A stretch of 64,000 bases of DNA, from the NCBI GenBank assembly GCA_016210005.1, contig JACQVA010000008.1, positions 10,625 through 74,624 on the forward strand, read 5' to 3'. Shown piece after piece: positions 16,504 to 57,997 of the stretch (the first letter of the stretch is position 1; every line of letters starts with the position of its first letter). The translations under genes and the position numbers were made by a program. A model generated the notes under the pieces. It saw only the letters and a program-made list of their open reading frames with translations, had not been told where the DNA came from and ran no database searches. The stretch is from Deltaproteobacteria bacterium. Its GTDB lineage: Bacteria > Desulfobacterota > Binatia > HRBIN30 > JACQVA1.

Positions 16504-17228
16504 GTGCCGCGTGGTGGCGCCGCCGGTCTTGAAGAGAGAGAGCTCGTGATCAGATCAGAGGGATCGCTGCCTGAGGCAGCACGCCAGTCGCATGGCATTA
16601 GTTCGCCCAGTGAACCACGGGTTCGCGGCGATGGCGACCTGGTGGTGGTGCAGCCGGCGGTGTTGGCAACGGTCGATCACACCTTCGGCAACATCTTCCA
16701 GCGCCTGTACCACCTGATTCGTACCGCTGCGAGCGGCAACAGCGGAGCGCTGACGACGTTGGAGACGTCGGTGCGCGAACTGCAATCACTGCTGGAGCTT
16801 TTCGTTGATTACGTGGCGCCGACGCCGATGGCTATGCGCTGCCTGAGGATGAGCGATGTCGCCACCAGCTTTCGACGCCACCTCGACGATGGCGTGGGCG
16901 CAGGGCGCGTAGATGTTGTCGTGAGTGAGACGGCTGGCGCGACGGTGACTGCGGACCCCGCCTGTCTGGCGCGGGTTTTCCGCCTGCTAGCGCAGTCCTT
17001 GTGTGCCAGTGCGAGTCCGGCCGGCGTGCGGGCGGCTTGTGGGTTGTCTTCTGAGGAGGGGGGACACTTCGAAATCAGCGTCGTCGGCCCGGGTTCCGTG
17101 GCGACACCACTAACCGAATTACGCTGGGCGCTGGCGCAGAAACTGATCGAACTCCAAGGCGGAGATCTGCGTCAGGAGGTCAACGAGGGTGGGCAGCGAT
17201 GGACCATCCGGTTGCCGCAAGGGGTGGC

Positions 17229-17232
<4 letters not shown>
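16504..17232 (+). CDS. Sensor histidine-kinase-like protein: soluble, with a degenerate ATP-binding region.
   Basis: The H-box-like VDHTFGNIFQRLYHL is followed by an HATPase-like region lacking clear G1/G2 glycine boxes. Its stop overlaps the response-regulator start (ATGA). An alternative GTG start lies at about 16546. Confidence 0.45.
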
Positions 17233-18635
<1,403 letters not shown>

Positions 18636-18796: not shown

Positions 18797-20803
18797 ATGT
18801 ACTGTGACTTCTACCAGATGTCGGAGCGCCCATTTAACGTGACTCCCGATCCCAAATGCCTCTACCTTAACGCACGCTATCGGGAGGCATTGGCGGCGCT
18901 CCAGTACGGCATCTCGCAGCGCAAAGGATTCATTACGCTCATCGGCGAAGCGGGCACCGGCAAGACGACTTTGCTCAAGCGGCTGCTCGACGAGTTCGAC
19001 CAAAAGACCCGCTCGGTCTTCATCTTCAATACGCACGTCTCGTTCGAGGAGATACTCGAGTACATCTTCGCCGAGTTCGATCTCCCCGTCCACAACGGCA
19101 AGAAGCTCTACATGCTGCAGCGGTTGAACACCTTCCTGCTCGAAGAGCTGCGCGGGGGCGGCAACGTGGCGTTGCTGATCGACGAGGCCCAAGACCTCGA
19201 CTTCGCTGTCCTCGAAGACTTGCGCCTGCTCTCCAACTTGGAAACCGCGAAGGAGAAGATCTTGCAAATCGTTCTCTCCGGCCAGCCCGAGTTGGGCGAG
19301 AAGCTGAATAACCCGAACTTGCGGCAGCTGCGCCAGCGCATAGCCGTCAGCTGCCGGCTGCAACCGCTGTCGCGGGAGGAGCTTGGTGAGTACGTTCAGT
19401 ACCGGCTGCATGCCGTCGGGTGCAGTGATCTGAAGCTCTTCTCGCGCGATGCCGAGGATCAGCTCTACCATTTTTCGCACGGCATTCCGCGGCTGATAAA
19501 TGTGGTGTGCGACAATGCCTTAGTGATCGGCTACGCGCTGGGGAAAAAGCGCATCGGCGGAGATGTTATCAGCGAGGCGGCGGCCGATCTGATGCCGCTG
19601 CAAGAGGTGCGCGAGATTGTGGTTCCTAAAGACGTCCCGCCCGCGCCGGTGGTGGCCGCGGGTGTGCCGTTGCCATCGCGCGCCCGCATCGGGCTGATAG
19701 CGATGGTGCTGGTGGCGATTGCCGTCGGGCTGCTATCCGTCGGGCGCAGCATGTTGCAGCGCCCGGACGGCGGCGAACCGGCCGCCGGTAGCGCCGAACG
19801 GGGGGCAGCGGTGGCGCGGCCGCCCGAGGTGATTCGCCCCGGTTCCCGGGCGGCTGAGCCGGTGGTGGAGCCGGCGCCGCCCGAGGCCGCCGGGCGCGGT
19901 GTGGTACGCCCGCTCGAGGTGCCGGCACCGGCGCCGGCGCAAGAAGCACCGGCCGACTCGCCGTTTTCGGATGCGGGCGCGGCGAGCGCGCCGGTGTCGC
20001 AGGTGGCGGCGCAGCGGTTCGAGCGCGTTGCCCCTAGTGCTGACGAGCCACCGCCTGCCGCCGCTGCTAATAAAGCCGGCGAACCGGAGCAGCTTGCTAG
20101 CGTTGACGCGGTGCCCCACCCCGAGCCGATGGTCTCCGAGCCGATTGCCTCCGAGGCGCCACCGCTGGCTAACGGGCGCGAACGCGCGCGGGCGGCAGAT
20201 GAGCCCCGCCCACAGCGCGCTGCCGAGCGTGCCGCGGTGGCCAGTGCCCCATCGGCGACGACGCTATGGGATGCGGAAGCTGCACCGGTGCCGGCGCCCG
20301 TGCCGGCACCGGTCGCGCTGCCGCCAGAGGAGGGCGAGGCGGGAGTGATGCGGCTGGCGACCAACCAGATGGAGCGGGTGATCGTGCAGCCGGGCGACTC
20401 GGTATCTCGGATCGCGCTCAAGAAGTATGGCCAGGCCAACTACACCATCCTCGACTTGCTGAAGCTGGCCAACCCGAACTTGCGCGATGTCAATGTCATC
20501 GCCGTCGGTCAGGCGTTGCAGCTGCCGGACTTGAGCGAAAGCTCGGTGGTATCGGCCGGCGATCGTCGTTTCGGTGTCCTGGTCTACTCGACCACCGAAG
20601 CGGCGCGCGCCGCGGCGTTGGACGCCGCGTTGCGGGCACGGGGCCAGCGCAGCCGAGTGAGCCGCGCTGAGTTAGGCGCCGGCCGCCCGATCTTTCGGGT
20701 TGTGATCGAAGGCTTTGCGGAGCGAAACGCTGCCGCCGCGGCCAGCAAGGAAGTCCAGCGCTTGTTTCGTGAGGACAGCCGCATGGCGCTGCTGGTGCGC
20801 TAG
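18797..20803 (+). CDS. ExeA/GspA-like AAA ATPase of the PEP-CTERM-locus type. It has a TM segment, an Ala/Pro-rich linker, and C-terminal LysM and SPOR domains.
   Basis: Walker A GEAGTGKTT plus the ExeA-like N-terminus; hydrophobic segment IGLIAMVLVAIAVGLL; LysM-like VQPGDSVSRIALKKYG; SPOR-like C-terminus FGVLVYSTTEAARAAAL...FRVVIEGF. Confidence 0.8.
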   Translation: MYCDFYQMSERPFNVTPDPKCLYLNARYREALAALQYGISQRKGFITLIGEAGTGKTTLLKRLLDEFDQKTRSVFIFNTHVSFEEILEYIFAEFDLPVHNGKKLYMLQRLNTFLLEELRGGGNVALLIDEAQDLDFAVLEDLRLLSNLETAKEKILQIVLSGQPELGEKLNNPNLRQLRQRIAVSCRLQPLSREELGEYVQYRLHAVGCSDLKLFSRDAEDQLYHFSHGIPRLINVVCDNALVIGYALGKKRIGGDVISEAAADLMPLQEVREIVVPKDVPPAPVVAAGVPLPSRARIGLIAMVLVAIAVGLLSVGRSMLQRPDGGEPAAGSAERGAAVARPPEVIRPGSRAAEPVVEPAPPEAAGRGVVRPLEVPAPAPAQEAPADSPFSDAGAASAPVSQVAAQRFERVAPSADEPPPAAAANKAGEPEQLASVDAVPHPEPMVSEPIASEAPPLANGRERARAADEPRPQRAAERAAVASAPSATTLWDAEAAPVPAPVPAPVALPPEEGEAGVMRLATNQMERVIVQPGDSVSRIALKKYGQANYTILDLLKLANPNLRDVNVIAVGQALQLPDLSESSVVSAGDRRFGVLVYSTTEAARAAALDAALRARGQRSRVSRAELGAGRPIFRVVIEGFAERNAAAAASKEVQRLFREDSRMALLVR

Positions 20804-24939: not shown

Positions 24940-26231
24940 ACGGCAGTCGCACAGGTTATCGAATTGCCATGGTGGCGGCTTGCCCGTTTCCCAGCCTGCG
25001 CGGTTCGCAGGTGCTGATTCGGGAATTGGCAGAAGCTCTGGCGGCAGCGGGCCACGAAGTTCACGTTGTTGCCTATCCTGCCGGAGAGCATCTGGTTCCG
25101 GTCAAGGGCATGGCTATCCACCGAGCCCGGACCTGGTGGGGGTTGGATGGATGCGGCTCGTGGTGGGCGAAGTTGGTGCTCGACGTGGCGTTGATACTCG
25201 CCCTCTACCGGGTTGTGCGCGCGCACGCGATCGACGTAATTCACGCTCACAACTATGAGGGTCCGCTGGTGGGTTACGCGGTACGGTGGTTGTTGGGTAC
25301 GCCGGTCGTGTACCACACTCACAATGCTATGGCAGACGAACTGCCTTACTACTTCCAGGGATCGTTGGCGTCCCGGTTGGCTCGCCGGTTCGGATCGTTG
25401 CTGGACAGGGTGGTGCCGTTGGGCGCGGATCATTGTCTGGCCCTCACCGATGAATTGAGTGGGTATCTGCGGCGAAAAGGGGTGCCGCGGCCGCGAATTA
25501 CGGTGGTACCACCTGCCATCAGCCAGCCGGCGGCTGGGGGTCTGTCCGCTTCACGTCTGTTTCCGCACAATGAAGTGGTCTTGTACGCTGGGAACATCGA
25601 CCCATACCAGGGAATCGACGTCTTATTGCTGGCTTACGCCCGTTTGCGCGAGCGCCGCCCCGGTGTCCTGTTGGTCATTGCGGCGCATCCGGCGAAGGCG
25701 CCGGCGGTTCGCGGGCGGCTGGCAGAGCTGGCGCAGTTGCCTGGCGTCCGCGTGGTGATGGCGCAAACGTTTGGGGCAACTCGGCCGATCCTGAACCGTG
25801 CGGACGTGGTTGTGTGCTGTCGCTCGTCTTGGTCTGGATTTCCAATCAAATTGCTGAATTTCATGTCTTTTGGCCGTGCAATCGTGGTATGTAAGAGTGC
25901 GGCGAAGGCGGTCAGCGACGGGGTAAGCGGAGTGGTGGTGCCCGATGAGGACGACAAAGCGATGGCCGATGCGATTGAGATGCTTCTTGCGGATGGCCAG
26001 CGCAGGGCGGAGTTGGGGGCTGCCGCTCGGAGGGCGGTGCAAAGGGGCCACAGCTGGGCAGTCGCTGTGTCACTGATCGAGACGGTGTACGCGGGGGTCG
26101 TCGGGGATGACTCAGCTGGTGGGATAGATGGCGAAAAACGGCGGTTCGGGGGTGTGCAAAATCACTTGATGGCGTCGACCGAAGATCGTATAAGCCCGCG
26201 GGCGCAGACCCGGAGGACCGGGAGCGAATGA
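24936..26231 (+). CDS. Glycosyltransferase family 4.
   Basis: The start overlaps the upstream stop (ATGA). N-terminal block IAMVAACPFPSLRGSQVLIRELAEALAAAGHEVHVV and a GT4 C-terminal domain. Confidence 0.8.
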   Translation: MNGSRTGYRIAMVAACPFPSLRGSQVLIRELAEALAAAGHEVHVVAYPAGEHLVPVKGMAIHRARTWWGLDGCGSWWAKLVLDVALILALYRVVRAHAIDVIHAHNYEGPLVGYAVRWLLGTPVVYHTHNAMADELPYYFQGSLASRLARRFGSLLDRVVPLGADHCLALTDELSGYLRRKGVPRPRITVVPPAISQPAAGGLSASRLFPHNEVVLYAGNIDPYQGIDVLLLAYARLRERRPGVLLVIAAHPAKAPAVRGRLAELAQLPGVRVVMAQTFGATRPILNRADVVVCCRSSWSGFPIKLLNFMSFGRAIVVCKSAAKAVSDGVSGVVVPDEDDKAMADAIEMLLADGQRRAELGAAARRAVQRGHSWAVAVSLIETVYAGVVGDDSAGGIDGEKRRFGGVQNHLMASTEDRISPRAQTRRTGSE

Positions 26232-26932
26232 AGAACGCTGTCGTGAAACGTGTTGGACTGGCGCTCGCGTTAGTCGTGATGATGGGGTGTGGCCGCGCTC
26301 GCTCCACCCCGCCCGTGCCGTTGCCGGCTCTGGATGCTTCTGCTCCGGAGGCGAAGACGGCTAGCGAATACCTGATTCAGCCGGGTGACACGTTGCGAGT
26401 GAAGTTCCTCTATCACCCCGATTTGGATGTAAGGCTACCCGTGCGCCCTGACGGCAACATCTCCCTACAAATGACCGGCGATATCGCGGCGGCAGGGATG
26501 AGCGCGAACCATCTGGCGGAGGTTATCCGGGAGCGCTCAGGCGATCGGCTGCGTGACCCCGAGGTGACGGTGATTGTGGCCGAAATCGGCGAGCAAAAGG
26601 TCTATGTTGGCGGCGAAGTGCGACTACCCGGCTTCGTTCCCTATAGGTCCGGTTTGACGCCGCTGCAAGCGATCCTGGATCGTGGCGGGTTTACCGACAC
26701 CGCCCGCGCCGACAGTGTCGTGCACCTGATGGTTGGAGAGAAGGACTACCAGGCCACGCGCCTGGATCTTACGAAAGTGCTCGAAGGCGAACCCGAGTCC
26801 GTGCAGCTAGCAGCCCGCGACATGCTCTACGTGCCGCGAACGACAATTGGTGACATGAACTCGTTTGTTGACCTCTATGTCCGGCGCTTGCTGCCGATCC
26901 CGCCGCGGGTGGGTGTGGGTTTTTCGCCGTGA
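26228..26932 (+). CDS. Polysaccharide export (Wza-like) outer-membrane lipoprotein.
   Basis: Lipobox LALALVVMMGCG; the poly_export motif IQPGDTLRVKF..PDGNISL; and a SLBB-like region. Confidence 0.8.
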   Translation: MKNAVVKRVGLALALVVMMGCGRARSTPPVPLPALDASAPEAKTASEYLIQPGDTLRVKFLYHPDLDVRLPVRPDGNISLQMTGDIAAAGMSANHLAEVIRERSGDRLRDPEVTVIVAEIGEQKVYVGGEVRLPGFVPYRSGLTPLQAILDRGGFTDTARADSVVHLMVGEKDYQATRLDLTKVLEGEPESVQLAARDMLYVPRTTIGDMNSFVDLYVRRLLPIPPRVGVGFSP

Positions 26933-26953: not shown

Positions 26954-28564
26954 ATGGCAGACGAAATTCAAAGACCGCGAAACGGTACAGGTCATGGCAA
27001 TGGGCACGGCAATACCAACGCCCACGGCAATGGTAACATCCATGGCAACGGTAATGCGCACGGCAACGCTAACGGCTACGGAGGTGGTGGCGGACGGATA
27101 TTGACGGGCGGCGAGCAGTTGCGCGAAGTGCTGCATGTGTTGTTCAAGCGCTGGCGGATGATCGCGGCGCTCTTTGTGGTGGTGGCCTTACCGGGCTTGG
27201 CCGTGTCGACGTGCAGCAAGCCCAAGTACGTGGCCACCGCCAAGGTCCTCATTACCACCCAGCGGGGCGACGCCACCGTTCAGCCAACCGATCTGACGAA
27301 GGTGTCTACCCTGGACTTGAACGAGTCGGCCGTGAACTCGGAAGTGCACATCATTCGTAGCCGGCAGATGTTGGATCACGTTGTTCGCGGGCTGACCTAT
27401 GGCGATAGCAACGGCGACGCGCGGATTGAAAACGTTAGCCTGCAGAATAACGGGGCGGATTTGGGACTGAAGGTGATGGCGCTTGAGCAGGCGCTCGTTG
27501 TAACCCCGATCAAGTCTTCTAACGTTATCCAAATCGACTACAAGGCCCAGAGGCCGGAGACCGCGGCGCAGGTGGTCAATCGTGTGGTTGACGAGTACCT
27601 CGCGTTTCACGCCGAGGTGCACGGCAACAAGAACCTTTCGCACTTCTACGAAGAGCAGCGCCGGGATCTGGAGAAGCGCTTGCGTGTGTCCGAGGACGCC
27701 CTCAAGGAATTCGCGGATCGCGAGGGCATTTCCTCGCCGCGCGAGGAGATTCAGGCCGCGGTCCGCGCGGTGGCTGAGCTCGACACCGCGATGCGGGAGA
27801 TCAATGCGAGCATCAACGGAGCCGAGGAGAAGATGCGGATAGTCCAGCAGCAGTTTGCGGATCAACCACCGATCATCAAGCGCTATCAGTATCTCGAGGT
27901 TAACCCGGTTGTTACCCAGCTGACGCAGCAGTTGGTTGATCGGCAGATCGATCGCGTCAGCCTATTGCGCCGGTACACCGACAAGGATCGCCACGTGCGC
28001 GACAATGCCGAGGAGATCGGCGAGTTACAGGACCAGCTGGACGAGGAGCTGCGAGATCACCCAACGGTGGTGGCGCGCCAGATGTTGCGGACCAACCCAG
28101 TGCGTGAGGATCGCTTGCGGCTGATGCTGGACCTGGAGAGCTCGCTCAAGGAGCTGCGGGCGCGCCGCGCCACGCTGGAAGAGGAAACGGTTCGTGGCAA
28201 TCGCCGGCTGATTTCATTGCGGCAGAAGACGCTGGAGTACGATCGGCTCGATCAAGAAGTGAAGAACCGCCGTGACACCTTCGAGCTCTACGTTAAGCGC
28301 GAACAGGAAGCCCGCATCAGCGAGGCAATGGATCAGGAGCGGCTGGTAAACGTTGACGTGGTACAGCGGCCGGCACTGCCGCTGCCGCGCACCGACAGCC
28401 AGCGGACTTCGGTGTTTCTGTCGCTGATTTCGGGCCTGGCAGTGAGTTTTGGGGCTGCCTTCGGGCTCGAATACCTCAATCGCTCGCTGCGCTCGGAGTA
28501 CGATGTCGAGCAGCACCTGGGATTGCCGCTGCTTGGCAGCATTAACGACTATTCGCAAGCCTGA
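26954..28564 (+). CDS. Chain-length determinant (Wzz/GumC-like, PEP-CTERM-locus type) protein with an N-terminal His-Gly-Asn repeat tail.
   Basis: Repeat stretch HGNGHGNTNAHGNGNIHGNGNAHGNANGYGGGGG, followed by a TM segment, a long coiled-coil periplasmic domain and a C-terminal TM. Confidence 0.8.
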   Translation: MADEIQRPRNGTGHGNGHGNTNAHGNGNIHGNGNAHGNANGYGGGGGRILTGGEQLREVLHVLFKRWRMIAALFVVVALPGLAVSTCSKPKYVATAKVLITTQRGDATVQPTDLTKVSTLDLNESAVNSEVHIIRSRQMLDHVVRGLTYGDSNGDARIENVSLQNNGADLGLKVMALEQALVVTPIKSSNVIQIDYKAQRPETAAQVVNRVVDEYLAFHAEVHGNKNLSHFYEEQRRDLEKRLRVSEDALKEFADREGISSPREEIQAAVRAVAELDTAMREINASINGAEEKMRIVQQQFADQPPIIKRYQYLEVNPVVTQLTQQLVDRQIDRVSLLRRYTDKDRHVRDNAEEIGELQDQLDEELRDHPTVVARQMLRTNPVREDRLRLMLDLESSLKELRARRATLEEETVRGNRRLISLRQKTLEYDRLDQEVKNRRDTFELYVKREQEARISEAMDQERLVNVDVVQRPALPLPRTDSQRTSVFLSLISGLAVSFGAAFGLEYLNRSLRSEYDVEQHLGLPLLGSINDYSQA

Positions 28565-28585: not shown

Positions 28586-29326
28586 TTGAGCAAGATCTAC
28601 GAAGCGCTGAAGAAGGCGGAAGAAGAGCGCGAACGCGTGCGCTGGACCGAGCCGGCGCCGGGCGCAGGGGGCGCCGAGCCCGCGTCGCCGCTCGCGCTGC
28701 CGCCCACCGATGTCGTCGCCGAGGATTACCAGCGGCTTCGGGCCAGCTTGGTCTCCGGACTGAGCCCCTCCGCGTTGCACACGATCTTGGTTGCTTCTGC
28801 GCGCCATGGCGAGGGCGCCAGTACGGTTGCCATCGGTTTGGCCACTGCTCTCGCCAAGGAGCGTGAGACGCGGGTGCTGCTGGTGGAAGGCAACTTGCGC
28901 CTGCCCAGTCTGGCCCGGATGCTGCCGGTTGCCCCTAACGGGGGCGTGAGCGATTTCATCAGTGGGCAACGCTCCGCCGAGTCGGTTGTGACCCGAGTGG
29001 ATGCGCTCAACCTGTCGGTGATTGTGGCAGGTAACCATGCGCGCGGTAGCATCGACCTCGAACAGATCAGCGCGCTGCTGGCACGGCTGCGCCCGCAGTT
29101 CGATTTCATTGTGATCGACGCGCCGCCGGTTAACCGCTATGCCGACGCATCAATCTTGGCCCCCAAAGTTGACGGCGTTATCTTGGTTGTGGAAGCTGAC
29201 CGTACGCCGTTGACCGAGGCCGAGACCGCTAAGCGACAGCTCGACAAAGTCGACGCGCGTATTCTCGGCGTCGTGCTAAACCGGCGCCGCTCATACATCC
29301 CGGCCTTTCTCGAAAGCTTGCTGTGA
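28586..29326 (+). CDS. BY-kinase-like (tyrosine autokinase family) protein with a degenerate Walker A motif.
   Basis: The P-loop region SARHGEGASTVAIGLA has GEGAST instead of GEGKST. Walker B IVIDAPP is present. The C-terminus has a single Tyr and no Tyr cluster. Confidence 0.7.
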   Translation: MSKIYEALKKAEEERERVRWTEPAPGAGGAEPASPLALPPTDVVAEDYQRLRASLVSGLSPSALHTILVASARHGEGASTVAIGLATALAKERETRVLLVEGNLRLPSLARMLPVAPNGGVSDFISGQRSAESVVTRVDALNLSVIVAGNHARGSIDLEQISALLARLRPQFDFIVIDAPPVNRYADASILAPKVDGVILVVEADRTPLTEAETAKRQLDKVDARILGVVLNRRRSYIPAFLESLL

Positions 29327-29350: not shown

Positions 29351-30781
29351 GTGGCTCAAGCTGTTGTAGTTCGTGACCGCGCGGCCGCGGCGTTCCCGCT
29401 GGGCCCAATTATAGGGCTGGTGGGGGTCGCGGTGCTGGCGACGCTGGCCGACCTGGCGATTGGCGCTGGCGCCTGGTTCTTCATGGTGGCGGCGCTGCTG
29501 GTGCTGGCGTTGGTCATGGCCCGGCCAGAGGTAGGGATCGCGGTTTTCCTGTCGACATTCCTGGTTACATATCCGTCTGTGCTCGCAGGCGCCGGCTATC
29601 TGACCATCAATAACGTGCTGGGACTGGTATTCCTGGTGCTCTTGGCCCATCGCGTTTACAGCACCGGCGACTGGTGGTTTGCCCGCAACCCGGAGATGTT
29701 GCTCTTCGGCCTCATCGTGCTCAGTTACCTCGCTTCGGGCTACTTCAACGGACCAGACCCGCGCTTGTTGCAGTTGATCGGCCCCTCTGAGCGCAATGAG
29801 GCCATGCGCTTGTTCGTTAATCGGGTGGCCTTCGTGCTTTTTGTGATAAATTTCATTCGTACACCGGCGCATATTCGCCTGATATATATGTTGGCGATCT
29901 CACTGATGGTTGCCAGCGGCTTGGTCGGCCTGTACGGGGCCTTAAGCGGCGGCGGGCTATACGGTTACCGGGCCAGCACCTTCATCTGGATTATCGCGGC
30001 ATCCGGTAATCCCAATCGTTTGGCAATGTTCTCGATCATCTCGATGGGCGCGCTGTGGTACTTGTCGCAGCAGGTGTACAGCCGAGTCGGCCGTGCGCTC
30101 TTGATCGCAACCATCGTTGCGCTGGTGTTGGCCGTGTTCATGGCGGCCTCGCGCAGCGGGTTGCTGGCGCTGAGCGCCTGCGTGCTCTTCATTCTCGCCG
30201 ACGAAGGGGCCTCTCCCAGGCGGGTGCTTGGCCTGGTGGCGGCGGGGGTCTTGGCGGTCGTCCTGGTGCTGCAATTTGTGCCCGAAAAGAGCTTGGAGCG
30301 CGCTACTACTTTGCCTGGTACCGAGAGGGCGGAGACCGGCGTTGGTTCTGGGTCGCTGGAGCGGCGACGGTATACACTCTCGGTCGGCTATGAGATCGTG
30401 AGCGAAAACGTGCTCCTCGGAGTCGGCGTCGGCAACTGGGAAATCACGCGCTTCTTGCGCGACCCGGGGCGCTACACCGCGCCACCGCACAATTCGTATC
30501 TGCTGGCGATGGCAGAGGGGGGGCTGTTCTGTTTGCTTGGCTTCGTCGGCTTGTTCTGGCGTACCTGGGGCAACCTGAGCACGGCCCGCCGCCTGCTGCC
30601 ACCGCCTAGGCAGTTGCGGGACATCAACTGGATGGTCAGCGGGGCTCGGGTCGGTCTGATCGCCGTCGTGGTGTTCTCCATGTTCGCCGACCTGTGGCAG
30701 GCGATCCCGCTGTTCTGGTTAGTAGGCCTGGGCGTGACCATGCGACGGTACGCCGAGGCGCGAAGCTACGCGACGGCATGA
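29351..30781 (+). CDS. O-antigen ligase / Wzy-like polymerase family membrane protein.
   Basis: About 10 to 12 TM segments, with a periplasmic loop between TM blocks typical of the Wzy_C / O-antigen-ligase family. Confidence 0.7.
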   Translation: MAQAVVVRDRAAAAFPLGPIIGLVGVAVLATLADLAIGAGAWFFMVAALLVLALVMARPEVGIAVFLSTFLVTYPSVLAGAGYLTINNVLGLVFLVLLAHRVYSTGDWWFARNPEMLLFGLIVLSYLASGYFNGPDPRLLQLIGPSERNEAMRLFVNRVAFVLFVINFIRTPAHIRLIYMLAISLMVASGLVGLYGALSGGGLYGYRASTFIWIIAASGNPNRLAMFSIISMGALWYLSQQVYSRVGRALLIATIVALVLAVFMAASRSGLLALSACVLFILADEGASPRRVLGLVAAGVLAVVLVLQFVPEKSLERATTLPGTERAETGVGSGSLERRRYTLSVGYEIVSENVLLGVGVGNWEITRFLRDPGRYTAPPHNSYLLAMAEGGLFCLLGFVGLFWRTWGNLSTARRLLPPPRQLRDINWMVSGARVGLIAVVVFSMFADLWQAIPLFWLVGLGVTMRRYAEARSYATA

Positions 30782-35061: not shown

Positions 35062-36462
35062 ATGAAGCGGGCCGTTGACTTGACTCTGGCGCTGGCCGGG
35101 TTGGTGTTCTTGCTCCCGCTCATGGCGCTGGTGGCGTTGCTGATCAAGCTCGACTCCGCCGGCCCGGTGTTCTTTCGCCAGCGACGCGTGGGGCGCGACG
35201 CCAAGCCGTTCGAGATCTACAAATTCCGGACGATGGTCGTGGGTGCCTATCAGATGGGCTCACGTCTGACGACCAAGCGCGATCCGCGCGTGACCCGCGT
35301 CGGGCAGATCCTACGGTGGTTCAAGATCGATGAGCTGCCCCAACTCCTCAACGTGGTGAGCGGCGAGATGAGCCTGATCGGCCCCCGGCCCGAGGACCCG
35401 TACTTCGTGCAGTTCTACTCAGCGGCGCAGCGGGCGGCGCTGTCGGTACGGCCCGGAATTGTCGGACCGAGCCAGATCTCAGGGCGCGACGAGCTGGAGA
35501 GCTATCCCGAGGGCTTGAAAGACACCGAAGGGTACTACGTGGACCATATTCTGCCCGATAAGCTCGCGCGCGACCTCGAGTACATCCGCAACGCCACGCT
35601 GATGGGGGACATCAAGTTGCTGCTGCACGGCGTCTGGGTCACTGTCCTGGGTGCAATCAAGACCAAGTACCTGTGGCGGCGCCGCAAGCGCATCGCTTTG
35701 ATGGCGGCCGACCTGGCATTGGTGGCGGTGGCCTATTGGGCAGCGGTCCTAATCCGCTACGAAGGGGCGTGGCCCGATGACGCGGCATTTGCGCTGACGC
35801 CGTTGCTGATCATCGTCCTCGTCCGGCCGGTTTCCTTGATGTACTACGGTGCCTACCAGGGCATTTCAGCCTACTTCGGCCTGTGGGACGTGGTGGCCTT
35901 GGTCAAAGCCGTCTCTTTCAGCGCGGTGGTCGCCGCCGGCCTGACGTTCTTTCTGGGCTTTCAGAAGTTTCCCCGCTCGGTGTTCGCGATTGATTGGGCC
36001 CTGGTCCTTCTGCTCATGGGGAACTTGCGCTACGGCCTGCGCGGCTGGGCGCGCCGCGGCGTGCACCAGCACCGCCCACGCAAGCAAAAGGCCCTCATCG
36101 TCGGTGCCGGCAGCGGCGGCGAGCAAATCAGCCGCATGTTGCTGGAAGATCCGTTGTCGCCCTACCGCCCGATCGGGTTCATCGATGAATCAGCCGAACG
36201 GTGGGGCTCGCTGATCCACGGCATCCGGGTGCTGGGCGGGAGCGCCGAGCTGGCGCTGGCGTTGTCGGCCAATGGCGTCAAAGCCGTGTTCGTGTGCCCG
36301 TCGGATTTACACGACGGCATGGCCGAGGACGTGATAACGACTTGCGAACGGGCGGGCGTTGACTACCGCATTGTCCCCGCCTTGACCGACTTATTGAATA
36401 CCGACGGCTTCACGGTGGAACGGCCGGGCTACGGCGCGCAGCGCAGTGTGGCGTCGGTGTGA
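35062..36462 (+). CDS. Polyprenyl-phosphate sugar-phosphate transferase (bacterial sugar transferase). The catalytic domain is N-terminal, followed by TM helices and a C-terminal Rossmann-like (CoA-binding-type) domain.
   Basis: Catalytic block [24 protein letters not shown]...[21 protein letters not shown] lies within the first 120 aa. Three to four TM segments follow, then [14 protein letters not shown]...GFIDE. Confidence 0.8.
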
Positions 36463-40279: not shown

Positions 40280-41629
40280 ATGGCGCGGACGGTCGGTAAG
40301 AACGCCCTCTATACCCTGATTGCCGGACTCGGCTCGTTCGCCATGGGTTTGGGCACAGGCATCATCACCGCGCGCATGCTCGGGCCGCACGACCGCGGCA
40401 TCTTCTCGCTGGTGTCGGTGCTGCCGCATACCGTTGTGGCCTTCGTCAAGCTGGGCATGGCGCAGGGCAGCATTTACGCCATTCGCCGCCAGCGTGCCGA
40501 CCCTGGCGCCGTGGCGGGGCAGCTCCTGCTGGCGGCGTTCGCCATCAGCCTGCCGGTTATGGCCGGCGTGTATGTGTACAAGGCGCAGGCAGCGCGGCTG
40601 CTGCTCGCAGGGGCTAACCCGCTGTACTTCCTGCTGGCACTGCCGCTGATCCCGCTGCTGTTGCTCGAGAGCTATTTCTTCGGCGTACTACAGGCGGTGG
40701 ACCGCTTCGGTATCTTCAATCGCCGCCGTTTGCTGGCGGGGGCCGGCGGCCTGATCGGCATGCTGCTGGCCCTGGTGATCTGGCGCGGCGGCTTGACGGC
40801 GGCCATTCTCGTCTCGGTCGGCATTACCGCGCTACTCGATCTCTGGCTGATCGTCACGGTGGCGCGCGTGTGTGGGATGCATTTCCGCTGGGACGGCAAG
40901 TTGGCGCGCGGGCTGCTGAGCTTCGGCCTGAAGTCCCATCTGCAGACAATCGCCACCCACATGCACTTCCGCGCCGACTTGTACTTGGTTGCGCTGCTGC
41001 TAAACCCCACCGACGTCGCATTCTACTCGATTGCGTCACGACTGGCGGAGGTGATTCTGTTCGTTCCCGAGTCGCTGGGCTTGGTGGTCTACCCGAAGCA
41101 GGCGGGCTCCTCTAAGGCGGTGTTGGAAGACCTCACCGCCGCCTCGTGCCGGCACGTGGCGCTGATGACAGTGCTGGCGGGGCTAGCGCTGGTAGCTGTC
41201 GGGCCTTGGCTGGTGGTGGTGTGGTACGGGCGCGATTACGCCCCGGCGGGTGCGCCTCTGTTCTATGTCGTGCCGGGCGTGATCATGATGTCGCTCTTCT
41301 TCATGTTGTCGCGCAGCTTCACCAGCCAGAATCGGCAAGAGATCAACATCGTCGCTTCGGGCGTGGCGCTGGGGTGCAATGTGCTGTTCAACATCTACCT
41401 CATCCCCCGCATGGGCATCTCCGGAGCTGGCTTGTCGACTGCCCTTTCGTATTCGCTGGCCACGCTGATCCTGGCGCGCGTATACCTCAAGGAGTCGGGG
41501 AAGACAGTTCGTGATCTGCTGGTAATCAAGCGTGATGATCTGGTGCTCTACCGCCAGCTGCTGGCCGAAGTGATCGGCCGCCGTGGCAGCATTCGGCCGG
41601 CAGTGGCGACGCAAGGCGGTGCTCGTTGA
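40280..41629 (+). CDS. Wzx-type oligosaccharide flippase (MOP superfamily polysaccharide biosynthesis protein).
   Basis: 449 aa with about 12 to 14 TM helices and a polysaccharide-biosynthesis-protein-like layout. Confidence 0.75.
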   Translation: MARTVGKNALYTLIAGLGSFAMGLGTGIITARMLGPHDRGIFSLVSVLPHTVVAFVKLGMAQGSIYAIRRQRADPGAVAGQLLLAAFAISLPVMAGVYVYKAQAARLLLAGANPLYFLLALPLIPLLLLESYFFGVLQAVDRFGIFNRRRLLAGAGGLIGMLLALVIWRGGLTAAILVSVGITALLDLWLIVTVARVCGMHFRWDGKLARGLLSFGLKSHLQTIATHMHFRADLYLVALLLNPTDVAFYSIASRLAEVILFVPESLGLVVYPKQAGSSKAVLEDLTAASCRHVALMTVLAGLALVAVGPWLVVVWYGRDYAPAGAPLFYVVPGVIMMSLFFMLSRSFTSQNRQEINIVASGVALGCNVLFNIYLIPRMGISGAGLSTALSYSLATLILARVYLKESGKTVRDLLVIKRDDLVLYRQLLAEVIGRRGSIRPAVATQGGAR

Positions 41630-42747
41630 TGGCCGAGCTTCGGTTCAATTTGGCCGGTGCCGGCGGGTCGCTGCGCAGTCACTACGCGCCCTTCATGGCG
41701 TATGCCGAACAGCATCTGTTGCCGCTGCGGATCGCCGCAGGCGAGGTGGCGCCCGTCATCGACGCGGTGCTGGAGTGGCATGAGAGCCCGCCCCCGCAGG
41801 ACCGCCACACGGCCGAACCGGAATTGGCCGGGCTGGAGCGCCTGGATCGCGATCTCTACGTCGGGCCGGGGCGCGTCTGCTGGTTTCGCATCGATGACTT
41901 CCGGGACTTGCACCTGCGCTTTGATTGGGACGGCCGGCAGCTACACGTCCACGGGCACTACTACTTCTACCTCAGCCGCGACCGGCTGCGCGACCGCACC
42001 AAACGTTGGTGGGCCGGCGCGCGCCTGCGGGCGCAACGGCTGAATCGGTTCACCACCTTGCTCTACTATCTGGCCTACTATCCCGCGTTCTGGTGGTGCG
42101 AAACGCAGATGGGCTTTCACCCGATTCATGCGGCCGGGGCGGTGACCGATGCCGGTGCAGTTGTGCTGGCCGGGCCGAGTGGGGTCGGGAAGTCGACCCT
42201 CGCCCTGGCGCTGGCGGCGCAGCCGGCGCAGCTGTTGTCTGAAACGTTTCTGCTGCATCGTGGCGCAACGCTGCGCCCGGTGCGGGAGCCGCTGCTGCTT
42301 GATGAATGGAGCCGCTCATGGCTGGGCAGTGCCATGAGCGGCCTCGAACCGCTGCGCGCGGGCTTCGTGTTCAGCCGCAACGGCTACCATCGACTGGCGG
42401 GGTTGGCCGAAGAAGGCCGGGCGGCGGCGGTGCTCTTGCCGCGCCGGGCGCCGCGCACCTACGTGCGGGCGATCAGCGCCGAAGAGGCCCATCAGCGCCT
42501 CAGTGCCGCCAACCAGATTGTGAAGGATATGCGGCGCTATTGGGCGTTTGCCGCCGCGCTCGATCCGCTGGCGCCGAGTGGGCTGATGGCGCAGCGCGAG
42601 GCGGAGCTGGCTCGGCTGACCGCCGGAGCCCGCTGCGGCGAATTCGGCCTCGGCCCCGAGCTGAAACTCGGGGATGCGGTGCGCCAGGTGCGCGAGTTCC
42701 TGAGCGCCGAGTCTCTCCCTGTGACGCGGCGAGCGCGGTGCGCATGA
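41626..42747 (+). CDS. HPr-kinase/phosphorylase C-terminal-domain-like P-loop protein (HprK-related kinase).
   Basis: VVLAGPSGVGKSTLALALAAQPAQLLSETFLLHRG aligns with the HprK pattern LtGeSGiGKSelALeLikrGhrLvaDD. Start and stop both overlap neighbouring genes (ATGA). Confidence 0.55.
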   Translation: MMAELRFNLAGAGGSLRSHYAPFMAYAEQHLLPLRIAAGEVAPVIDAVLEWHESPPPQDRHTAEPELAGLERLDRDLYVGPGRVCWFRIDDFRDLHLRFDWDGRQLHVHGHYYFYLSRDRLRDRTKRWWAGARLRAQRLNRFTTLLYYLAYYPAFWWCETQMGFHPIHAAGAVTDAGAVVLAGPSGVGKSTLALALAAQPAQLLSETFLLHRGATLRPVREPLLLDEWSRSWLGSAMSGLEPLRAGFVFSRNGYHRLAGLAEEGRAAAVLLPRRAPRTYVRAISAEEAHQRLSAANQIVKDMRRYWAFAAALDPLAPSGLMAQREAELARLTAGARCGEFGLGPELKLGDAVRQVREFLSAESLPVTRRARCA

Positions 42748-43975: not shown

Positions 43976-45754
43976 ATGCGAATTCTCGGCATCTCGTGCT
44001 TCTATCATGACGCCGCGGCGGCGTTGCTCGACGACGGCGTCTTGGTGGCGGCGGCGGAGGAAGAGCGCTTCTCGCGCAAGAAGCACGATTACGACTTCCC
44101 GGCATTGGCGATCCGGTTCTGCCTGGCGCAGGCCGGCATCACCACCGCTGACCTCGACTATGTCGTCTTCTACGAGAAGCCGTTCGTCAAGTTCGAGCGC
44201 ATCCTGACCACGGCGCTGCAAGTCGTGCCCAAGTCGTGGAAGGTGTTCGGCGATGCCATGACGACATGGCTGCTCGACAAGCTGTGGGTAAAAAACCTCA
44301 TCAGCAAAGAGCTGGGTGTACCACCGTCGAAGATCCTGTTCAGCGAGCATCACCTGTCGCACGCCGCCAGCACCTTTCTTTGTTCGCCCTTTGATGAAGC
44401 GGCGGTGCTGACGATTGACGGCGTCGGCGAGTGGGCGACTGCCACCATGGGGCGTGGAAAGGGCACCGACTTGCAGTTGCTGCGTGAGATCCGCTTTCCG
44501 CACTCGGTCGGCCTGCTCTACAGCGCGTTCACCGCGTTCTTGGGCTTCGAGGTCAACGAGGGCGAATACAAAGTCATGGGCATGGCGCCTTACGGCAAGC
44601 CGCGCTACCTCGACAAAGTCCACAAGCTCATTCAGCTCGGCCGTGATGGCAGCATCTGGCTCGATATGGATTACTTCTGCTTCCACCACTCCTCGCACCA
44701 GACCTACAAGCCGAAGTTCACCGAGCTGTTTGGCGAACCGCGCGATCCCTCGTGGCACTTCTTCACCGAAAGCTCGGGCTATCCGTCGTACTTCGAGCCC
44801 AAACCGGCCAACTACGGCGAGTTGGCCAAGAAGAACGAGTACTACGCGGACGTGGCCGCCAGTATTCAACAGGTTACCGAAGAGATCGTCCTGGCCATGG
44901 CGCGCCGGCTCCACGAAGAGACCGGACTCGACAAGCTCTGTCTGGCTGGCGGGGTGGCGTTGAACAGTGTGGCGAACGGGCGGGTGCAGCGTGAAACCCC
45001 GTTCAAGCAGCTCTTCATCCAGCCGGCCGCGGGTGACGGAGGCGGGGCGCTGGGCGCGGCGCTCTACGCCTATAATTGCGTCTTGGGCCGGCCCCGTAAG
45101 TTTGTGATGCGCCATGCTTACTGGGGGCAGGAGTTCGGCGCCGGCCCGATCAACGACTTCGTACGTTCCACCGGGGCGCCGGCGCAGACCTTTAATAAGG
45201 AAGAGGACCTCCTCGACCGGGTGGTGGAGGAGTTGCAGGCGGGGCGCGTGGTCGGGTGGTACCAAGGCCGCTTCGAATGGGGGCCGCGGGCGCTCGGCGC
45301 CCGCAGCATCATCGCCGATCCGCGCCGCGCTGACATGAAGGAAGTCGTCAACGTCAAGATCAAGTTCCGCGAGCCGTTCCGCCCGTTTGCGCCGTCGGTG
45401 TTGGCGGACGCCGCCGAGCGCTTTTTCGACTTACCCGATGCGCCGTCGCACTATCCCGCTCGCTTCATGCTGTATGTAGTCGATGTCAAGAACGGCCAGG
45501 GCGACGTCGTCCCTGCGATCACGCACGTGGACGGCACGGCGCGCTTGCAGACCGTGCACCGAGCGGAGAGCCCGCTCTACTACCGCTTGATCGAGCGCTT
45601 CGGCGCCGCGACCGGTGTGCCGGTAATCATGAACACCTCGTTCAACCTGAAAGGCGAGCCAATTGTGACCACCCCAGCCAATGCTTTCAGTACCTTTCAG
45701 CGCAGCGGCATGGATACGCTGGTGCTGGGCAACACCGTGGTCTCGAAAGCGTAG
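43976..45754 (+). CDS. Carbamoyltransferase (NodU/CmcH family).
   Basis: N-terminus MRILGISCFYHDAAAALLDDG...; 592 aa with a carbamoyltransferase C-terminal domain. Confidence 0.85.
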   Translation: MRILGISCFYHDAAAALLDDGVLVAAAEEERFSRKKHDYDFPALAIRFCLAQAGITTADLDYVVFYEKPFVKFERILTTALQVVPKSWKVFGDAMTTWLLDKLWVKNLISKELGVPPSKILFSEHHLSHAASTFLCSPFDEAAVLTIDGVGEWATATMGRGKGTDLQLLREIRFPHSVGLLYSAFTAFLGFEVNEGEYKVMGMAPYGKPRYLDKVHKLIQLGRDGSIWLDMDYFCFHHSSHQTYKPKFTELFGEPRDPSWHFFTESSGYPSYFEPKPANYGELAKKNEYYADVAASIQQVTEEIVLAMARRLHEETGLDKLCLAGGVALNSVANGRVQRETPFKQLFIQPAAGDGGGALGAALYAYNCVLGRPRKFVMRHAYWGQEFGAGPINDFVRSTGAPAQTFNKEEDLLDRVVEELQAGRVVGWYQGRFEWGPRALGARSIIADPRRADMKEVVNVKIKFREPFRPFAPSVLADAAERFFDLPDAPSHYPARFMLYVVDVKNGQGDVVPAITHVDGTARLQTVHRAESPLYYRLIERFGAATGVPVIMNTSFNLKGEPIVTTPANAFSTFQRSGMDTLVLGNTVVSKA

Positions 45755-45763
45755 TGCGCGGCC

Positions 45764-46954
45764 GTGACGCGCGGGCAGGAGGTGAGCGCGTGGGCGCTGT
45801 TGCTGCTGCTGGGGCTGCTTCTGGGCGGCGGCCTGGTCGAAGCCGGCGTCCGCGTCTTGCATCTCGTGCCCGATCGCTTTTGGGAGCCGGATGCGAAGCT
45901 GGGGTGGCGGCACAGCGCTGGCAGGACCGGCTGGTGGACGCAAGAGGACCGGGAGTTCCTGGTCCCGATCAGTATAAGTCGGCAGGGACTGCGCGATGTC
46001 GAGCACGCGTATGCCAAGCCTGCCGGAGTGACGCGAGTGTTGCTGTTGGGAGACTCGTTCATTGAGGCATTGCAAGTGCCACTGGCAGCGACCGTAGCAC
46101 GGCGACTAGAGGCGCATCTCGGGGCAACGACCGAAGTCATCAACGCCGGCGTCAGCGGCTATGGCACCGCCAGTGAGTTGCTGTTTCTACGCGATCAAGG
46201 GTTGCGCTACGCCCCCGACGTCGTGCTGCTGGCCTTCTATCCGGGTAATGACGTGAAGAACAACAGTGCGACGCTCGAAGACATCCTGCCACCGGTTTAT
46301 GACGGCGGCGGCAAGCTGGAACGGGTGACGGCTCCACTCGAAGGGTTCGCGCGCGCGCGCACGGGTTGGCGCGATCACGTACAGGCATATCGCTACACCC
46401 GCCAACTGCTGCTGCGTCACCCGGAGCTGACGGCGCCCTTGCGCCGCCTCGGGGTGGCGGCAAGCCTGGATGCCCCGCGCGCGGCGAGGGAGCGCGACGG
46501 TGTGCCGGTTGACTACTGGGTTTATGCCCCTGAGCCCAGCGCCGAGTGGGAAGACGCTTGGCGGCGCACGGAGTCGTTGCTCGCCGCCGTGCGCGCTACG
46601 GCGATCAGTGCCGGGAGCCGGTTCGCGATCGCGGTCATTCCCAGCCGCTATCAGATCTATCCCGAGCTCTGGGCGGAAACGCTCGCCGCGCATCCGGCGA
46701 TGCAGGGACGGGCGTGGGAGTTGGCCGGTCCAACTCGGCGCTTGCTACGGTGGTGCGAAACGCAGGGCGTGCCCTGCCTCGACTTGGCGGCGGGTTTGGT
46801 GGCGGCGGTGAAGACGAGCGCGCCGTTGTACTTCCACCACGATGGCCATTGGACCGCTGCCGGGCACGAAACGGTAGCGCAACAGCTGAAGAACTTCTTG
46901 CGCGAGCGGCAGCTCGTGTCAGTGCAGGAGGCAGAGACGCATGAGCTTCATTGA
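45764..46954 (+). CDS. SGNH/GDSL-hydrolase-family protein (AlgX/AlgJ-like polysaccharide O-acetyltransferase component).
   Basis: Signal anchor; LLLGDSF (GDS block); DGHWT. An alternative GTG start lies at about 45782. Confidence 0.7.
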   Translation: MTRGQEVSAWALLLLLGLLLGGGLVEAGVRVLHLVPDRFWEPDAKLGWRHSAGRTGWWTQEDREFLVPISISRQGLRDVEHAYAKPAGVTRVLLLGDSFIEALQVPLAATVARRLEAHLGATTEVINAGVSGYGTASELLFLRDQGLRYAPDVVLLAFYPGNDVKNNSATLEDILPPVYDGGGKLERVTAPLEGFARARTGWRDHVQAYRYTRQLLLRHPELTAPLRRLGVAASLDAPRAARERDGVPVDYWVYAPEPSAEWEDAWRRTESLLAAVRATAISAGSRFAIAVIPSRYQIYPELWAETLAAHPAMQGRAWELAGPTRRLLRWCETQGVPCLDLAAGLVAAVKTSAPLYFHHDGHWTAAGHETVAQQLKNFLRERQLVSVQEAETHELH

Positions 46955-47120: not shown

Positions 47121-47166
47121 TGGGACAATCGGTAAGCCATGTCGGTCTATTTCGCGAAGAAGGACC

Positions 47167-51300: not shown

Positions 51301-51304
51301 AACA

Positions 51305-52462: not shown

Positions 52463-52521
52463 AACCGGGCGGGACAGCGGTAGGCAATCCCACACACACT
52501 TCGTTGAGCAGGAAGAGGGCA

Positions 52522-53901: not shown

Positions 53902-53913
53902 GCCAATGCGCCG

Positions 53914-55590: not shown

Positions 55591-55594
55591 TATT

Positions 55595-57013: not shown

Positions 57014-57030
57014 GGCAAGGAGCAAGCAAC

Positions 57031-57996: not shown

Positions 57997-57997
57997 G

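Follow-up and report, generated by a model that had tools for sequence, protein, structure and literature searches.

The gene at 28586-29326 (+) of the stretch analysed here codes for a protein with the fold of bacterial tyrosine kinases (BY-kinases) in which the Walker A lysine, the second aspartate of Walker A' and the tyrosine-rich C-terminal tail are all missing. The stretch, called the window below, covers 64 kb of JACQVA010000008.1, a contig at least 143.5 kb long from a Deltaproteobacteria bacterium of the Binatia lineage. Directly upstream of the gene lies that of a class 2 polysaccharide co-polymerase (PCP-2) without a kinase domain. The most convincing reading, which we consider reasonably likely, is that the gene product is a BY pseudokinase which partners this PCP-2 without phosphotransfer and probably still binds nucleotide. 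All in silico tests support the proposal of a first-pass annotation of this DNA, in which the protein was seen as a BY-kinase homolog apparently unable to phosphorylate and as a non-catalytic partner of the co-polymerase.

That the protein belongs to the BY-kinase fold and family is confirmed at several levels. Its translation, numbered here from M1, contains SARHGEGASTVAIGL, followed by FDFIVIDAPP, and ends in LNRRRSYIPAFLESLL*. It passes TIGR01007 (eps_fam, the “polysaccharide biosynthesis tyrosine autokinase” domain) with 113.6 bits against a curated cutoff of 108.05, which is the reason why the identical database protein P0001 carries the annotation “CpsD/CapB family tyrosine-protein kinase”. 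The best phmmer matches in the PDB are VpsO (1.2e-21) and CapA1B1 (1.4e-21), followed by CapAB, BceF, Wzc and Etk. An AlphaFold2 model calculated from 64 homologs (mean predicted local distance difference test, pLDDT, 76.5; predicted template modelling score, pTM, 0.75) has a confident core, with pLDDT values below 50 in a linker (residues 21-43) and in the tail (residues 236-246). When this model was compared with the PDB by Foldseek, the top matches were BY-kinase domains only (VpsO, CapAB, Wzc, Etk; probability 1.00, TM 0.67-0.80). A Pfam scan returned only the generic P-loop families ParA, AAA_31 and MipZ. A deviant Walker A ATPase of the ParA/MinD type was rejected, as the P-loop SARHGEGAST has neither the signature lysine nor the P-loop lysine of xKGGxxK[ST] and the MinD and ParA models score far under the BY-kinase models. 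Membership in the XrtA-associated kinase families is ruled out by scores far under the cutoffs, with 110.6 bits against 230.65 for TIGR03018 (XrtA-associated tyrosine autokinase) and 97.6 bits against 313.8 for TIGR03029 (EpsG).

The departures from a functional kinase are precise. The P-loop reads G75-E76-G77-A78-S79-T80, with alanine at the lysine position and with G77, S79 and T80 kept, and HMMER alignment to solved BY-kinases places A78 opposite the Walker A lysine of VpsO (GEGKTT) and CapB (GAGKST). The codon of A78 is GCC (28817-28819), so that two or more substitutions would be needed to reach AAA or AAG. A true Walker A with an intact lysine elsewhere was also considered and rejected, since alignments to four solved BY-kinases fix the P-loop at residues 71-80 and the only G-x4-GK[ST] motifs of the window, searched in six frames, belong to two other genes. 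In Walker A', the canonical hhhhD-x-D-x-R-x-P has become LLVE101-G-N103-L-R105-L-P107, compared with LLIDCDLRKP in VpsO and LVIDGDMRKP in CapA1B1. The D-x-D pair is thereby replaced by E101 (codon 28886-28888) and N103 (28892-28894), with R105 and P107 kept. This second change had gone unnoticed in the first-pass annotation and means that the proposed catalytic aspartate is gone too. The tail carries a single tyrosine, Y237 (29294-29296), within a conserved [YH]-[IV]-P motif in place of the tyrosine-rich cluster, the C-terminal end being N232-R-R-R-S-Y237-I-P-A-F-L-E-S-L-L with one tyrosine in the last 15 residues. What the first-pass annotation had read from the letters therefore stands, namely GEGAST for GEGKST with alanine aligned to the lysine of known BY-kinases, an intact Walker B (IVIDAPP, with D178 present) and one C-terminal tyrosine instead of a cluster. 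The oligomerisation motif, EX2RX2R on helix alpha2, reads E46-D-Y-Q49-R-L-R52, so that the glutamate and the second arginine are kept; the first arginine is replaced by glutamine in at least 90% of orthologs. Among Lys-bearing relatives the three positions hold E in 69%, R in 78% and R in 78%, and the motif is degraded in the Lys-less clade.

None of the three losses is peculiar to this genome. Among the 120 closest database homologs (58-100% identity to the pseudokinase), most of which are labelled Candidatus Binatia, position 78 is occupied by A in 82, T in 33, V in 3 and S in 2 and never by lysine; G77, E101, N103, R105 and D178 are invariant in all 120, and each has exactly one tyrosine within its last 15 residues. 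The lysine is also missing in 22 orthologs of species-representative genomes, nearly all labelled Binatia, so the substitution does recur in relatives, where the first-pass annotation had proposed to look for it. In ten of these orthologous genes, from 10 species-representative genomes, codon 78 is GCC, GCG, GCA, ACG or GTG, and the pairwise ratio of nonsynonymous to synonymous divergence (dN/dS) is 0.08-0.30, with dS near saturation. The 22 orthologs share the N-terminus MSKIYEAL, each time with a GTG or TTG start codon and never with ATG, which makes the TTG start of the gene credible. The helix formed by this N-terminus is followed by the linker, which is rich in Pro, Ala and Gly and disordered. 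As a separate observation, the GTG and TTG starts may mean that translation is deliberately initiated at a lower level than for the upstream PCP.

To place the protein in a wider frame, 1.84 billion 50%-identity cluster representatives were searched with phmmer, which gave 70,929 matches at E < 1e-3, and the best 150 of these (27-62% identity to the query) were analysed. The lysine is missing at position 78 in 125 of the 150 (A, T, V, C, S, N or G) and present in 23. Walker A' has the form D/E-x-N in 116 of the 125 Lys-less representatives and acidic-x-D in 17 of the 23 Lys-bearing ones, which means that the lysine and the Walker A' aspartate are lost together. The tails differ as well: Lys-less proteins end 12-18 residues past the last strand with 0-3 tyrosines and the pattern N-R-[RK]-[RK]-x-[YH]-[IV]-P-x-x-[LI]-[YE]-x-x-L, while the tails of Lys-bearing representatives are mostly longer, with 2 to 6 or more tyrosines. 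A profile made from 49 diverse Lys-less sequences recovered 113 further proteins, none with the lysine and 112 with asparagine at position 103. Among the sources with a name, Lys-less sequences occur in metagenome-assembled genomes (MAGs) that carry the labels Binatia, Zixibacteria, Eisenbacteria, Planctomycetes, Desulfarculales, Desulfobacteraceae, Bacteroidota and Pseudomonadota, and in Desulforhabdus sp. TSK (L038), where the Walker A' region differs. Joint loss of the lysine, the D-x-D pair and the tyrosine cluster is thus supported, on comparative grounds, as a conserved signature of a clade that appears to be under purifying selection. Seven diverse members were compared with NCBIfam, and six of them pass TIGR01007 and none TIGR03018 or TIGR03029. 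As TIGR01007 is at most what they pass, the clade is without a dedicated curated model and inherits the name “tyrosine-protein kinase”. Binatia also hold a second, divergent group of Lys-less paralogs with the P-loop HSGTG[NST]TT, a Walker A' of D-x-N-F-R-T-P, a DYTP tail and a PCP-Wzy locus of their own (L024, L025, L027, L028, L030 and L050, in Binatia and “Deltaproteobacteria” MAGs).

In contrast to the catalytic residues, much of the nucleotide pocket is kept. Conservation among the 125 Lys-less representatives is 100% for G77, 99% for S/T79, 85% for T80, 98% for D/E101, 92% for N103, 89% for R105, 97% for P107, 96% for D178, 96% for N232 and 99% for P239, compared with a mean column identity of about 35% in the clade. 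The Walker-motif columns hold 2.81 bits against 1.87 elsewhere (Mann-Whitney p = 3e-6), and of the 14 columns that are invariant or nearly so in the diverse alignment they account for 5, where 1.65 would be expected (p = 0.015). It is known that Lys-to-Met Wzc closes and oligomerises with Mg-nucleotide (PMC9800525), and PDB entry titles list this mutant as deposited with MgADP or ADP bound. The retention of the Mg and nucleotide residues G77, S79, E101, D178 and N232 therefore suggests that the pseudokinase probably still binds Mg-nucleotide, which would serve as a structural or conformational cofactor and not as a phosphate donor. The “dead scaffold” of the first-pass annotation is right as far as the lost lysine, aspartate and tyrosine tail are concerned but may understate the protein, given the conserved Mg and nucleotide ligands. 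A basic residue in the P-loop that would compensate for the lysine across the family was considered and dropped, as the candidates R73/H74 are kept in close orthologs and not clade-wide.

The genes around the pseudokinase point to its partner. As the first-pass annotation had stated, the gene comes after Wza and Wzz: the gene for a Wza-like outer-membrane polysaccharide export (OPX) protein and the Wzz/PCP gene lie directly upstream. Gaps of 21 nt to the PCP gene and 24 nt to the downstream Wzy-like gene separate the pseudokinase from its neighbours. The order Wza-PCP-pseudokinase-Wzy is kept across the 22 ortholog loci wherever the flank is present, as well as in distant loci; the PCP gene is directly upstream in all orthologs with an upstream flank and the Wzy gene directly downstream in nearly all with a downstream flank. 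The PCP ends about 28 residues past its second hydrophobic segment (TM2), and the motif SLR[ST]ExDVxxxLGLP[LV]L of this tail is kept in orthologs and in distant Lys-less loci. In Staphylococcus aureus, a 29-residue tail of CapA binds and activates CapB (PMC12004946), and by analogy with this pair, and with EpsV/EcpK and HfsA/HfsB (PMC12004946), the PCP tail would be the docking segment for the pseudokinase. In some members of the clade the two partners form one chain, as PCP::Lys-less fusions are found in P0202, P0251, P0257 and P0268. At its other end, the cytoplasmic N-terminus of the PCP (26954-27100, +) has a low-complexity stretch rich in His, Gly and Asn (GHGNGHGNTNAHGNGNIHGNGNAHGNANGYGGGGG); the orthologous PCPs are all Gly/Asn-rich here, with stretches that vary in length and sequence.

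A model can be put together in which the stand-alone cytoplasmic pseudokinase docks on the tail of the PCP-2 encoded upstream and gives order or stability to the PCP oligomer, through which polymerisation by Wzy is coupled to export via the Wza-like protein. The cycle of autophosphorylation and dephosphorylation known from Wzc or CapB would not be run by the pseudokinase, as the Walker A lysine (A78), the second Walker A' aspartate (N103) and the tyrosine-rich acceptor tail are missing. In active BY-kinases the first of these is the catalytic lysine, the second has been proposed to recognise the substrate tyrosine and to drive the phosphorylation chemistry, and the tyrosine cluster is the substrate (PMC9800525). 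Experiments on single residues agree with this: neither Wzc K540M nor VpsO K551A nor ExoP K589I has ATPase activity, and their kinase activity is gone or reduced (PMC9800525). A clade under purifying selection lacks all three elements at once, which is most economically read as loss of autophosphorylation, and the pseudokinase would be functionally akin to a kinase locked in the “unphosphorylated” state.

The inventory of the window fits such a model. A six-frame search with hidden Markov models (HMMs) found no second BY-kinase-like open reading frame (ORF) in the window. The C-x5-R motif of low-molecular-weight protein tyrosine phosphatases (LMW-PTP) matches solely in Arg-rich off-frame ORFs of the window, and neither a PHP nor an LMW-PTP Pfam domain was found in any window ORF of at least 150 residues. 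The statement in the first-pass annotation that no other kinase or PHP phosphatase is present in the window consequently holds for BY-kinases, PHP and LMW-PTP phosphatases, but not in the strict sense, because of the HprK-like ORF listed in the table. The intact ExeA-like ATPase is another P-loop protein in the locus. Canonical Lys-bearing BY-kinases do exist in other Binatia genomes, with a tyrosine-rich tail in L042 (770 aa), and with only two tyrosines in the tail in L037 (a 1123-aa ORF).

Several considerations count against the pseudokinase reading. All support for it is comparative, and some residual or non-canonical catalysis could explain the strongly conserved Walker motifs as well. 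The orthologs all have Y237, which could serve as the one site of phosphorylation. The genome might also encode, outside the window, a BY-kinase and a phosphatase that act in trans, as other Binatia have canonical BY-kinases. Since the ExxRxxR motif is kept only in part, the pseudokinase may oligomerise in another way than the octamer of Wzc or CapB. Moreover, K540M in Escherichia coli K-12 abolishes the production of exopolysaccharide (EPS) (PMC9800525), which implies that a “locked” kinase is not automatically functional and that the clade must have adapted in other ways.

There are other explanations of the same data. The protein could be a fully inert scaffold that binds neither nucleotide nor Mg and acts through protein-protein contacts with the PCP only. 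Loss of the Walker A lysine usually weakens nucleotide binding in P-loop proteins, and with R73/H74 restricted to close orthologs there is no family-wide basic residue in the P-loop to make up for it. In the description given in PMC12004946, EcpK of Myxococcus xanthus and HfsB of Caulobacter crescentus are both proposed to be pure scaffolds of this type. However, all three Walker motifs have decayed in EcpK (PMC12004946), while G77, S/T79, D/E101, R105, P107, D178 and N232 are 89-100% conserved in the clade described here. With Walker columns significantly more conserved than the rest of the protein and Lys-to-Met Wzc deposited with MgADP or ADP, an inert scaffold appears rather unlikely. The conserved pocket could also be that of an active enzyme with a rewired site, comparable to the “with-no-lysine” kinases, that works as a slow ATPase or as a kinase for Y237 or another substrate and draws the positive charge from R73/H74, R105, the PCP tail or a neighbouring subunit. 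No ortholog deviates from tyrosine at position 237, where the wider clade has Y or H, R73 takes the “signature” lysine position of deviant Walker A ATPases in our own reading of the alignment, and K547Q in Wzc of Acinetobacter baumannii is listed as “kinase not affected” (PMC9800525, Table 3). Yet the lysine and the proposed catalytic aspartate are lost together in the great majority of Lys-less representatives (116/125), and Wzc, VpsO and ExoP lose ATPase or kinase activity with K540M, K551A and K589I, respectively (PMC9800525). Histidine at position 237 in 28-29% of the clade leaves no conserved acceptor, R73 is conserved in orthologs only, and a phosphatase gene was not found in the locus. 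A rewired enzyme is therefore improbable.

Even less can be said for a substrate or adaptor of a canonical BY-kinase encoded elsewhere, which would act via hetero-oligomers or become phosphorylated, as is often the case for eukaryotic pseudokinases. Lys-bearing, Tyr-rich BY-kinases in some Binatia genomes (L037, L042) and the fact that the window covers only part of its contig leave room for such a kinase, but across the ortholog loci the gene stays in a compact operon together with PCP, Wza and Wzy genes of its own and with no kinase or phosphatase nearby, which makes this very improbable, and genetics in M. xanthus argue that EcpK is independent of active BY-kinases (PMC12004946). An artefact, either a sequencing or assembly error at the lysine codon or a decaying pseudogene, is ruled out to the point of a negligible probability: GCC is two or more substitutions from a lysine codon, the lysine is absent from all 120 homologs in independent assemblies, codon 78 varies synonymously, dN/dS is low, and the frame is intact with a conserved start and stop.

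Blocher et al. 2025 (PMC12004946) defined the concept of BY pseudokinases via EcpK (MXAN_7447) of M. xanthus, a binding partner of EpsV, which is a PCP-2 without a kinase domain. Like EcpK, the protein described here is a stand-alone cytoplasmic BY-kinase fold without catalytic residues and Tyr-rich tail, and it belongs to a Wzx/Wzy-dependent EPS pathway with a PCP-2 that has no kinase domain; it thus fits the description of a BY pseudokinase on fold, lost catalytic residues and tyrosine tail, kinase-less PCP-2 and Wzx/Wzy cluster. The differences, drawn by description only, are that EcpK has lost all three Walker motifs together with several secondary-structure elements, whereas the pseudokinase in the window keeps near-canonical motifs save for two precise substitutions and passes TIGR01007. 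In addition, ecpK is not adjacent to epsV, whereas the gene here directly follows that of its PCP, and unlike EcpK it is part of PEP-CTERM-like loci with an ExeA-like ATPase. HfsB from the holdfast system of C. crescentus is, as described in PMC12004946, likewise a stand-alone BY-kinase-like protein without catalytic residues and tyrosine tail, which works with and stabilises the kinase-less PCP-2 HfsA and has a C-terminal helix predicted to contact the PCP or the membrane; this likeness is one of description, between different polysaccharide systems and different phyla. According to the same account (PMC12004946), Cuthbertson et al. 2009 listed stand-alone and fused examples of PCP-2 and BY-kinase-like proteins. 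These bipartite pairs without catalytic residues are found in Gram-negative Wzx/Wzy loci, as here; they are known from sequence lists only, and PCP::pseudokinase fusions are mentioned among them, to be compared with P0202, P0251, P0257 and P0268. GumC was already called a “pseudo-BY-kinase” in a 2022 review (PMC9800525). Lys-less homologs are not discussed in Shi et al. 2014, and a search of the literature on PEP-CTERM, Walker A or Binatota EPS found no relevant report.

The pseudokinase shares its fold and Walker B with the active kinases CapB/CapA of S. aureus, VpsO, Wzc and Etk, as well as the R-x-P in Walker A' and the place of its gene behind that of the PCP, and the PCP tail of about 28 residues is close to the 29 of the CapA activator tail (PMC12004946). 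Unlike these kinases it has no Walker A lysine, D-x-D or tyrosine cluster, only a partial ExxRxxR and no phosphatase gene in its locus. Its natural K-to-A and second Walker A' D-to-N substitutions fall on the residues changed in VpsO K551A, Wzc K540M and Wzc D569N, alleles in which kinase activity is reduced or abolished (PMC9800525), and two of the changes are identical. VpsO K551A leads to more EPS and D569N in A. baumannii Wzc to more high-molecular-weight capsule, which has been interpreted as stabilisation of an oligomeric, polymerisation-competent state (PMC9800525, Table 3). The laboratory mutants keep the tyrosine cluster and the full oligomerisation motif, while the clade here has co-evolved a short basic/aromatic tail and the N-terminal helix. 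The locus also resembles PEP-CTERM-type loci of TIGR03018 and TIGR03029 kinases in its PrsR-like regulator, TIGR03015-like ATPase, TIGR03027-like exporter, TIGR03007-like chain-length determinant and TIGR03097-like ligase/polymerase. The pseudokinase itself scores far under the respective cutoffs, and no exosortase was found in the window ORFs scanned.

In distant Lys-less loci, a homolog of the ExeA-like AAA_22 ATPase of the window adjoins the pseudokinase or its PCP. In L031, L032 and L064 (in Zixibacteria and Desulfarculales MAGs) the genes run PCP-ATPase-pseudokinase. They run ATPase-PCP-pseudokinase in L024, L025 and, with about 1.1 kb between ATPase and PCP, L027, and ATPase-pseudokinase in L035, where a PCP homolog was not detected. 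In the complete Desulfobacteraceae genome CP070700.1 (L081 5298-10747), a PCP (Wzz+GNVR) is followed by the AAA_22 ATPase, a 429-residue protein and the pseudokinase. This module is flanked by PilZ-domain genes, and the 429-residue protein, without a Pfam match, may be another conserved component. Fusions of the ATPase domain and a Lys-less domain in one polypeptide are also found. In L029/P0168 (675 aa; L029 3049-5076, +), residues 1-261 form the AAA_22 ATPase with an intact GEAGTGKT and residues 465-671 the Lys-less domain, and P0210 (530 aa) is a second, independent fusion. Such fusions are a Rosetta-stone hint that the ATPase at 18797-20803 and the pseudokinase may cooperate. Among loci with enough upstream flank, the ATPase is present at 18 of 28 Lys-less and 4 of 28 Lys-bearing loci; the total of Lys-bearing loci that carry it is five (in Acidobacteriota-type MAGs), so that it is enriched with Lys-less proteins but not exclusive to them. 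Based on the fusions, the PCP-ATPase-pseudokinase order and the conserved Mg and nucleotide ligands, a tentative and for now doubtful proposal would be that the Lys-less clade acts as a Mg-nucleotide-binding switch without phosphate transfer, working with the ExeA-like ATPase at the cytoplasmic face of the PCP-2. If this were true, many PEP-CTERM-type EPS systems would swap the phosphorylation/dephosphorylation timer of Wzc for an ATPase-driven or nucleotide-gated assembly cycle. Both the retained nucleotide pocket and the ATPase fusions go beyond the published pseudokinase concept, and what they mean is put forward here as hypotheses.

In the current model of capsule and EPS synthesis, the co-polymerase cycles between oligomeric states by tyrosine autophosphorylation and the action of a phosphatase. 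If the pseudokinase reading is correct, a large and phylogenetically broad set of Wzx/Wzy systems would run without a phosphorylation cycle, and the protein in the window would be an uncharacterised member of the published BY pseudokinase concept that represents a large clade. As the Lys-less clade goes by the name “tyrosine-protein kinase”, inferences on phosphorylation drawn from such an annotation would be wrong for it; a dedicated family model with a check on the lysine and aspartate would correct the mis-annotation. With the pocket kept here and the Walker motifs lost in EcpK, the clade would be a good system to study the role of the BY-kinase fold beyond phosphotransfer, and it also suits the question whether the co-encoded ExeA-like ATPase supplies the missing dynamics.

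Table. Coordinates in the window of the pseudokinase, its sequence elements and the other genes discussed
Feature	Coordinates	Strand	Basis or remarks
BY pseudokinase gene	28586..29326	+	246 aa, TTG start; BY-kinase fold, TIGR01007, PDB matches
Conserved N-terminal helix MSKIYEALKKAEEERERVR, residues 1-19	28586..28642	+	Ortholog conservation, AlphaFold2 model
Degenerate Walker A / P-loop, residues 71-80 (SARHGEGAST)	28796..28825	+	Translation, HMMER alignments
Altered Walker A', residues 97-107 (VLLVEGNLRLP)	28874..28906	+	HMMER alignments, homolog columns
Intact Walker B, residues 174-181 (FIVIDAPP)	29105..29128	+	D178 codon 29117-29119
Short C-terminal tail, residues 233-246 (RRRSYIPAFLESLL)	29282..29323	+	pLDDT <50
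Wza-like OPX export protein, 234 aa, Poly_export + SLBB	26228..26932	+	Pfam/NCBIfam
PCP-2-type co-polymerase without kinase domain, 536 aa, Wzz domain	26954..28564	+	PF02706; TIGR03007 116 bits, under cutoff
PCP cytoplasmic C-terminal tail, about residues 509-536 (NRSLRSEYDVEQHLGLPLLGSINDYSQA)	28478..28561	+	Candidate docking segment
Wzy-type polymerase / O-antigen-ligase-like membrane protein	29351..30781	+	Pfam/NCBIfam
Priming phosphoglycosyl transferase (Bac_transf)	35062..36462	+	Pfam/NCBIfam
Wzx-type flippase	40280..41629	+	PF01943, PF13440, MurJ
Sigma-54-dependent response regulator, PrsR-like, cluster head	17199..18635	+	TIGR02915 394 bits, cutoff 502.6
ExeA-like AAA_22 ATPase + LysM domain, intact Walker A GEAGTGKTT	18797..20803	+	TIGR03015 280.7 bits, cutoff 324.5
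373-residue ORF, Walker A LAGPSGVGKST, possible P-loop kinase-like	41626..42747	+	Weak HprK-related kinase A/B: 27.9, 23.3 bits, cutoff 200

The pseudokinase gene is embedded in one large Wzx/Wzy-type EPS cluster which extends from 16.5 to 63 kb and is placed in this pathway class by its Wzx flippase. Apart from the sigma-54 response regulator, the priming transferase and the flippase, the cluster contains an RfaH-like antiterminator, sulfatase and phosphodiesterase-family proteins, glycosyltransferases, acetyltransferases, a DegT aminotransferase, epimerases, a carbamoyltransferase, MBOAT and AlgX-like proteins and a 1377-residue beta-helix protein. Most of the 22 ortholog loci also have the genes further upstream, namely those for the regulator, the ATPase, the sulfatase, the phosphodiesterase and GT4. 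Between 16500 and 63300, matches were found to the XrtA/PEP-CTERM-like families TIGR02915, TIGR03015, TIGR03027, TIGR03007, TIGR03018, TIGR03097, TIGR03013 and stp glycosyltransferases, mostly near the cluster head and all under their curated cutoffs. No exosortase domain was detected among the scanned ORFs of the window, which gives the impression of a PEP-CTERM-like EPS system that lacks a visible exosortase.

For the Wza-like OPX protein all NCBIfam matches are under cutoff, the best being TIGR03027 (XrtA/PEP-CTERM exporter); EpsY of M. xanthus, a periplasmic OPX protein which depends on a separate outer-membrane beta-barrel, gives 79 bits. Such a beta-barrel was not identified in the window, where the ORFs at 60071-61513 (-) and 16504-17232 (+) are without a family match.

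The priming transferase has a reversed domain order, with Bac_transf (residues 2-194) before CoA_binding_3 (277-439), and its match to TIGR03025 falls into two stretches with the C-terminal part of the profile first. As a homolog of 489 aa in L001 has the same order of Pfam domains and full-length homologs of similar size exist at other ortholog loci, this looks like a genuine circular permutation or a rearranged architecture. The distal genes of the cluster (43976-59236, +) code for the carbamoyltransferase, two SGNH/AlgX-like proteins, the MBOAT protein, methyltransferases, a PMT_2-like membrane protein and the 1377-residue protein, a right-handed beta-helix that is possibly a polymer-modifying lyase or epimerase. 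This gene content suggests a heavily decorated (O-acylated or carbamoylated) polysaccharide.

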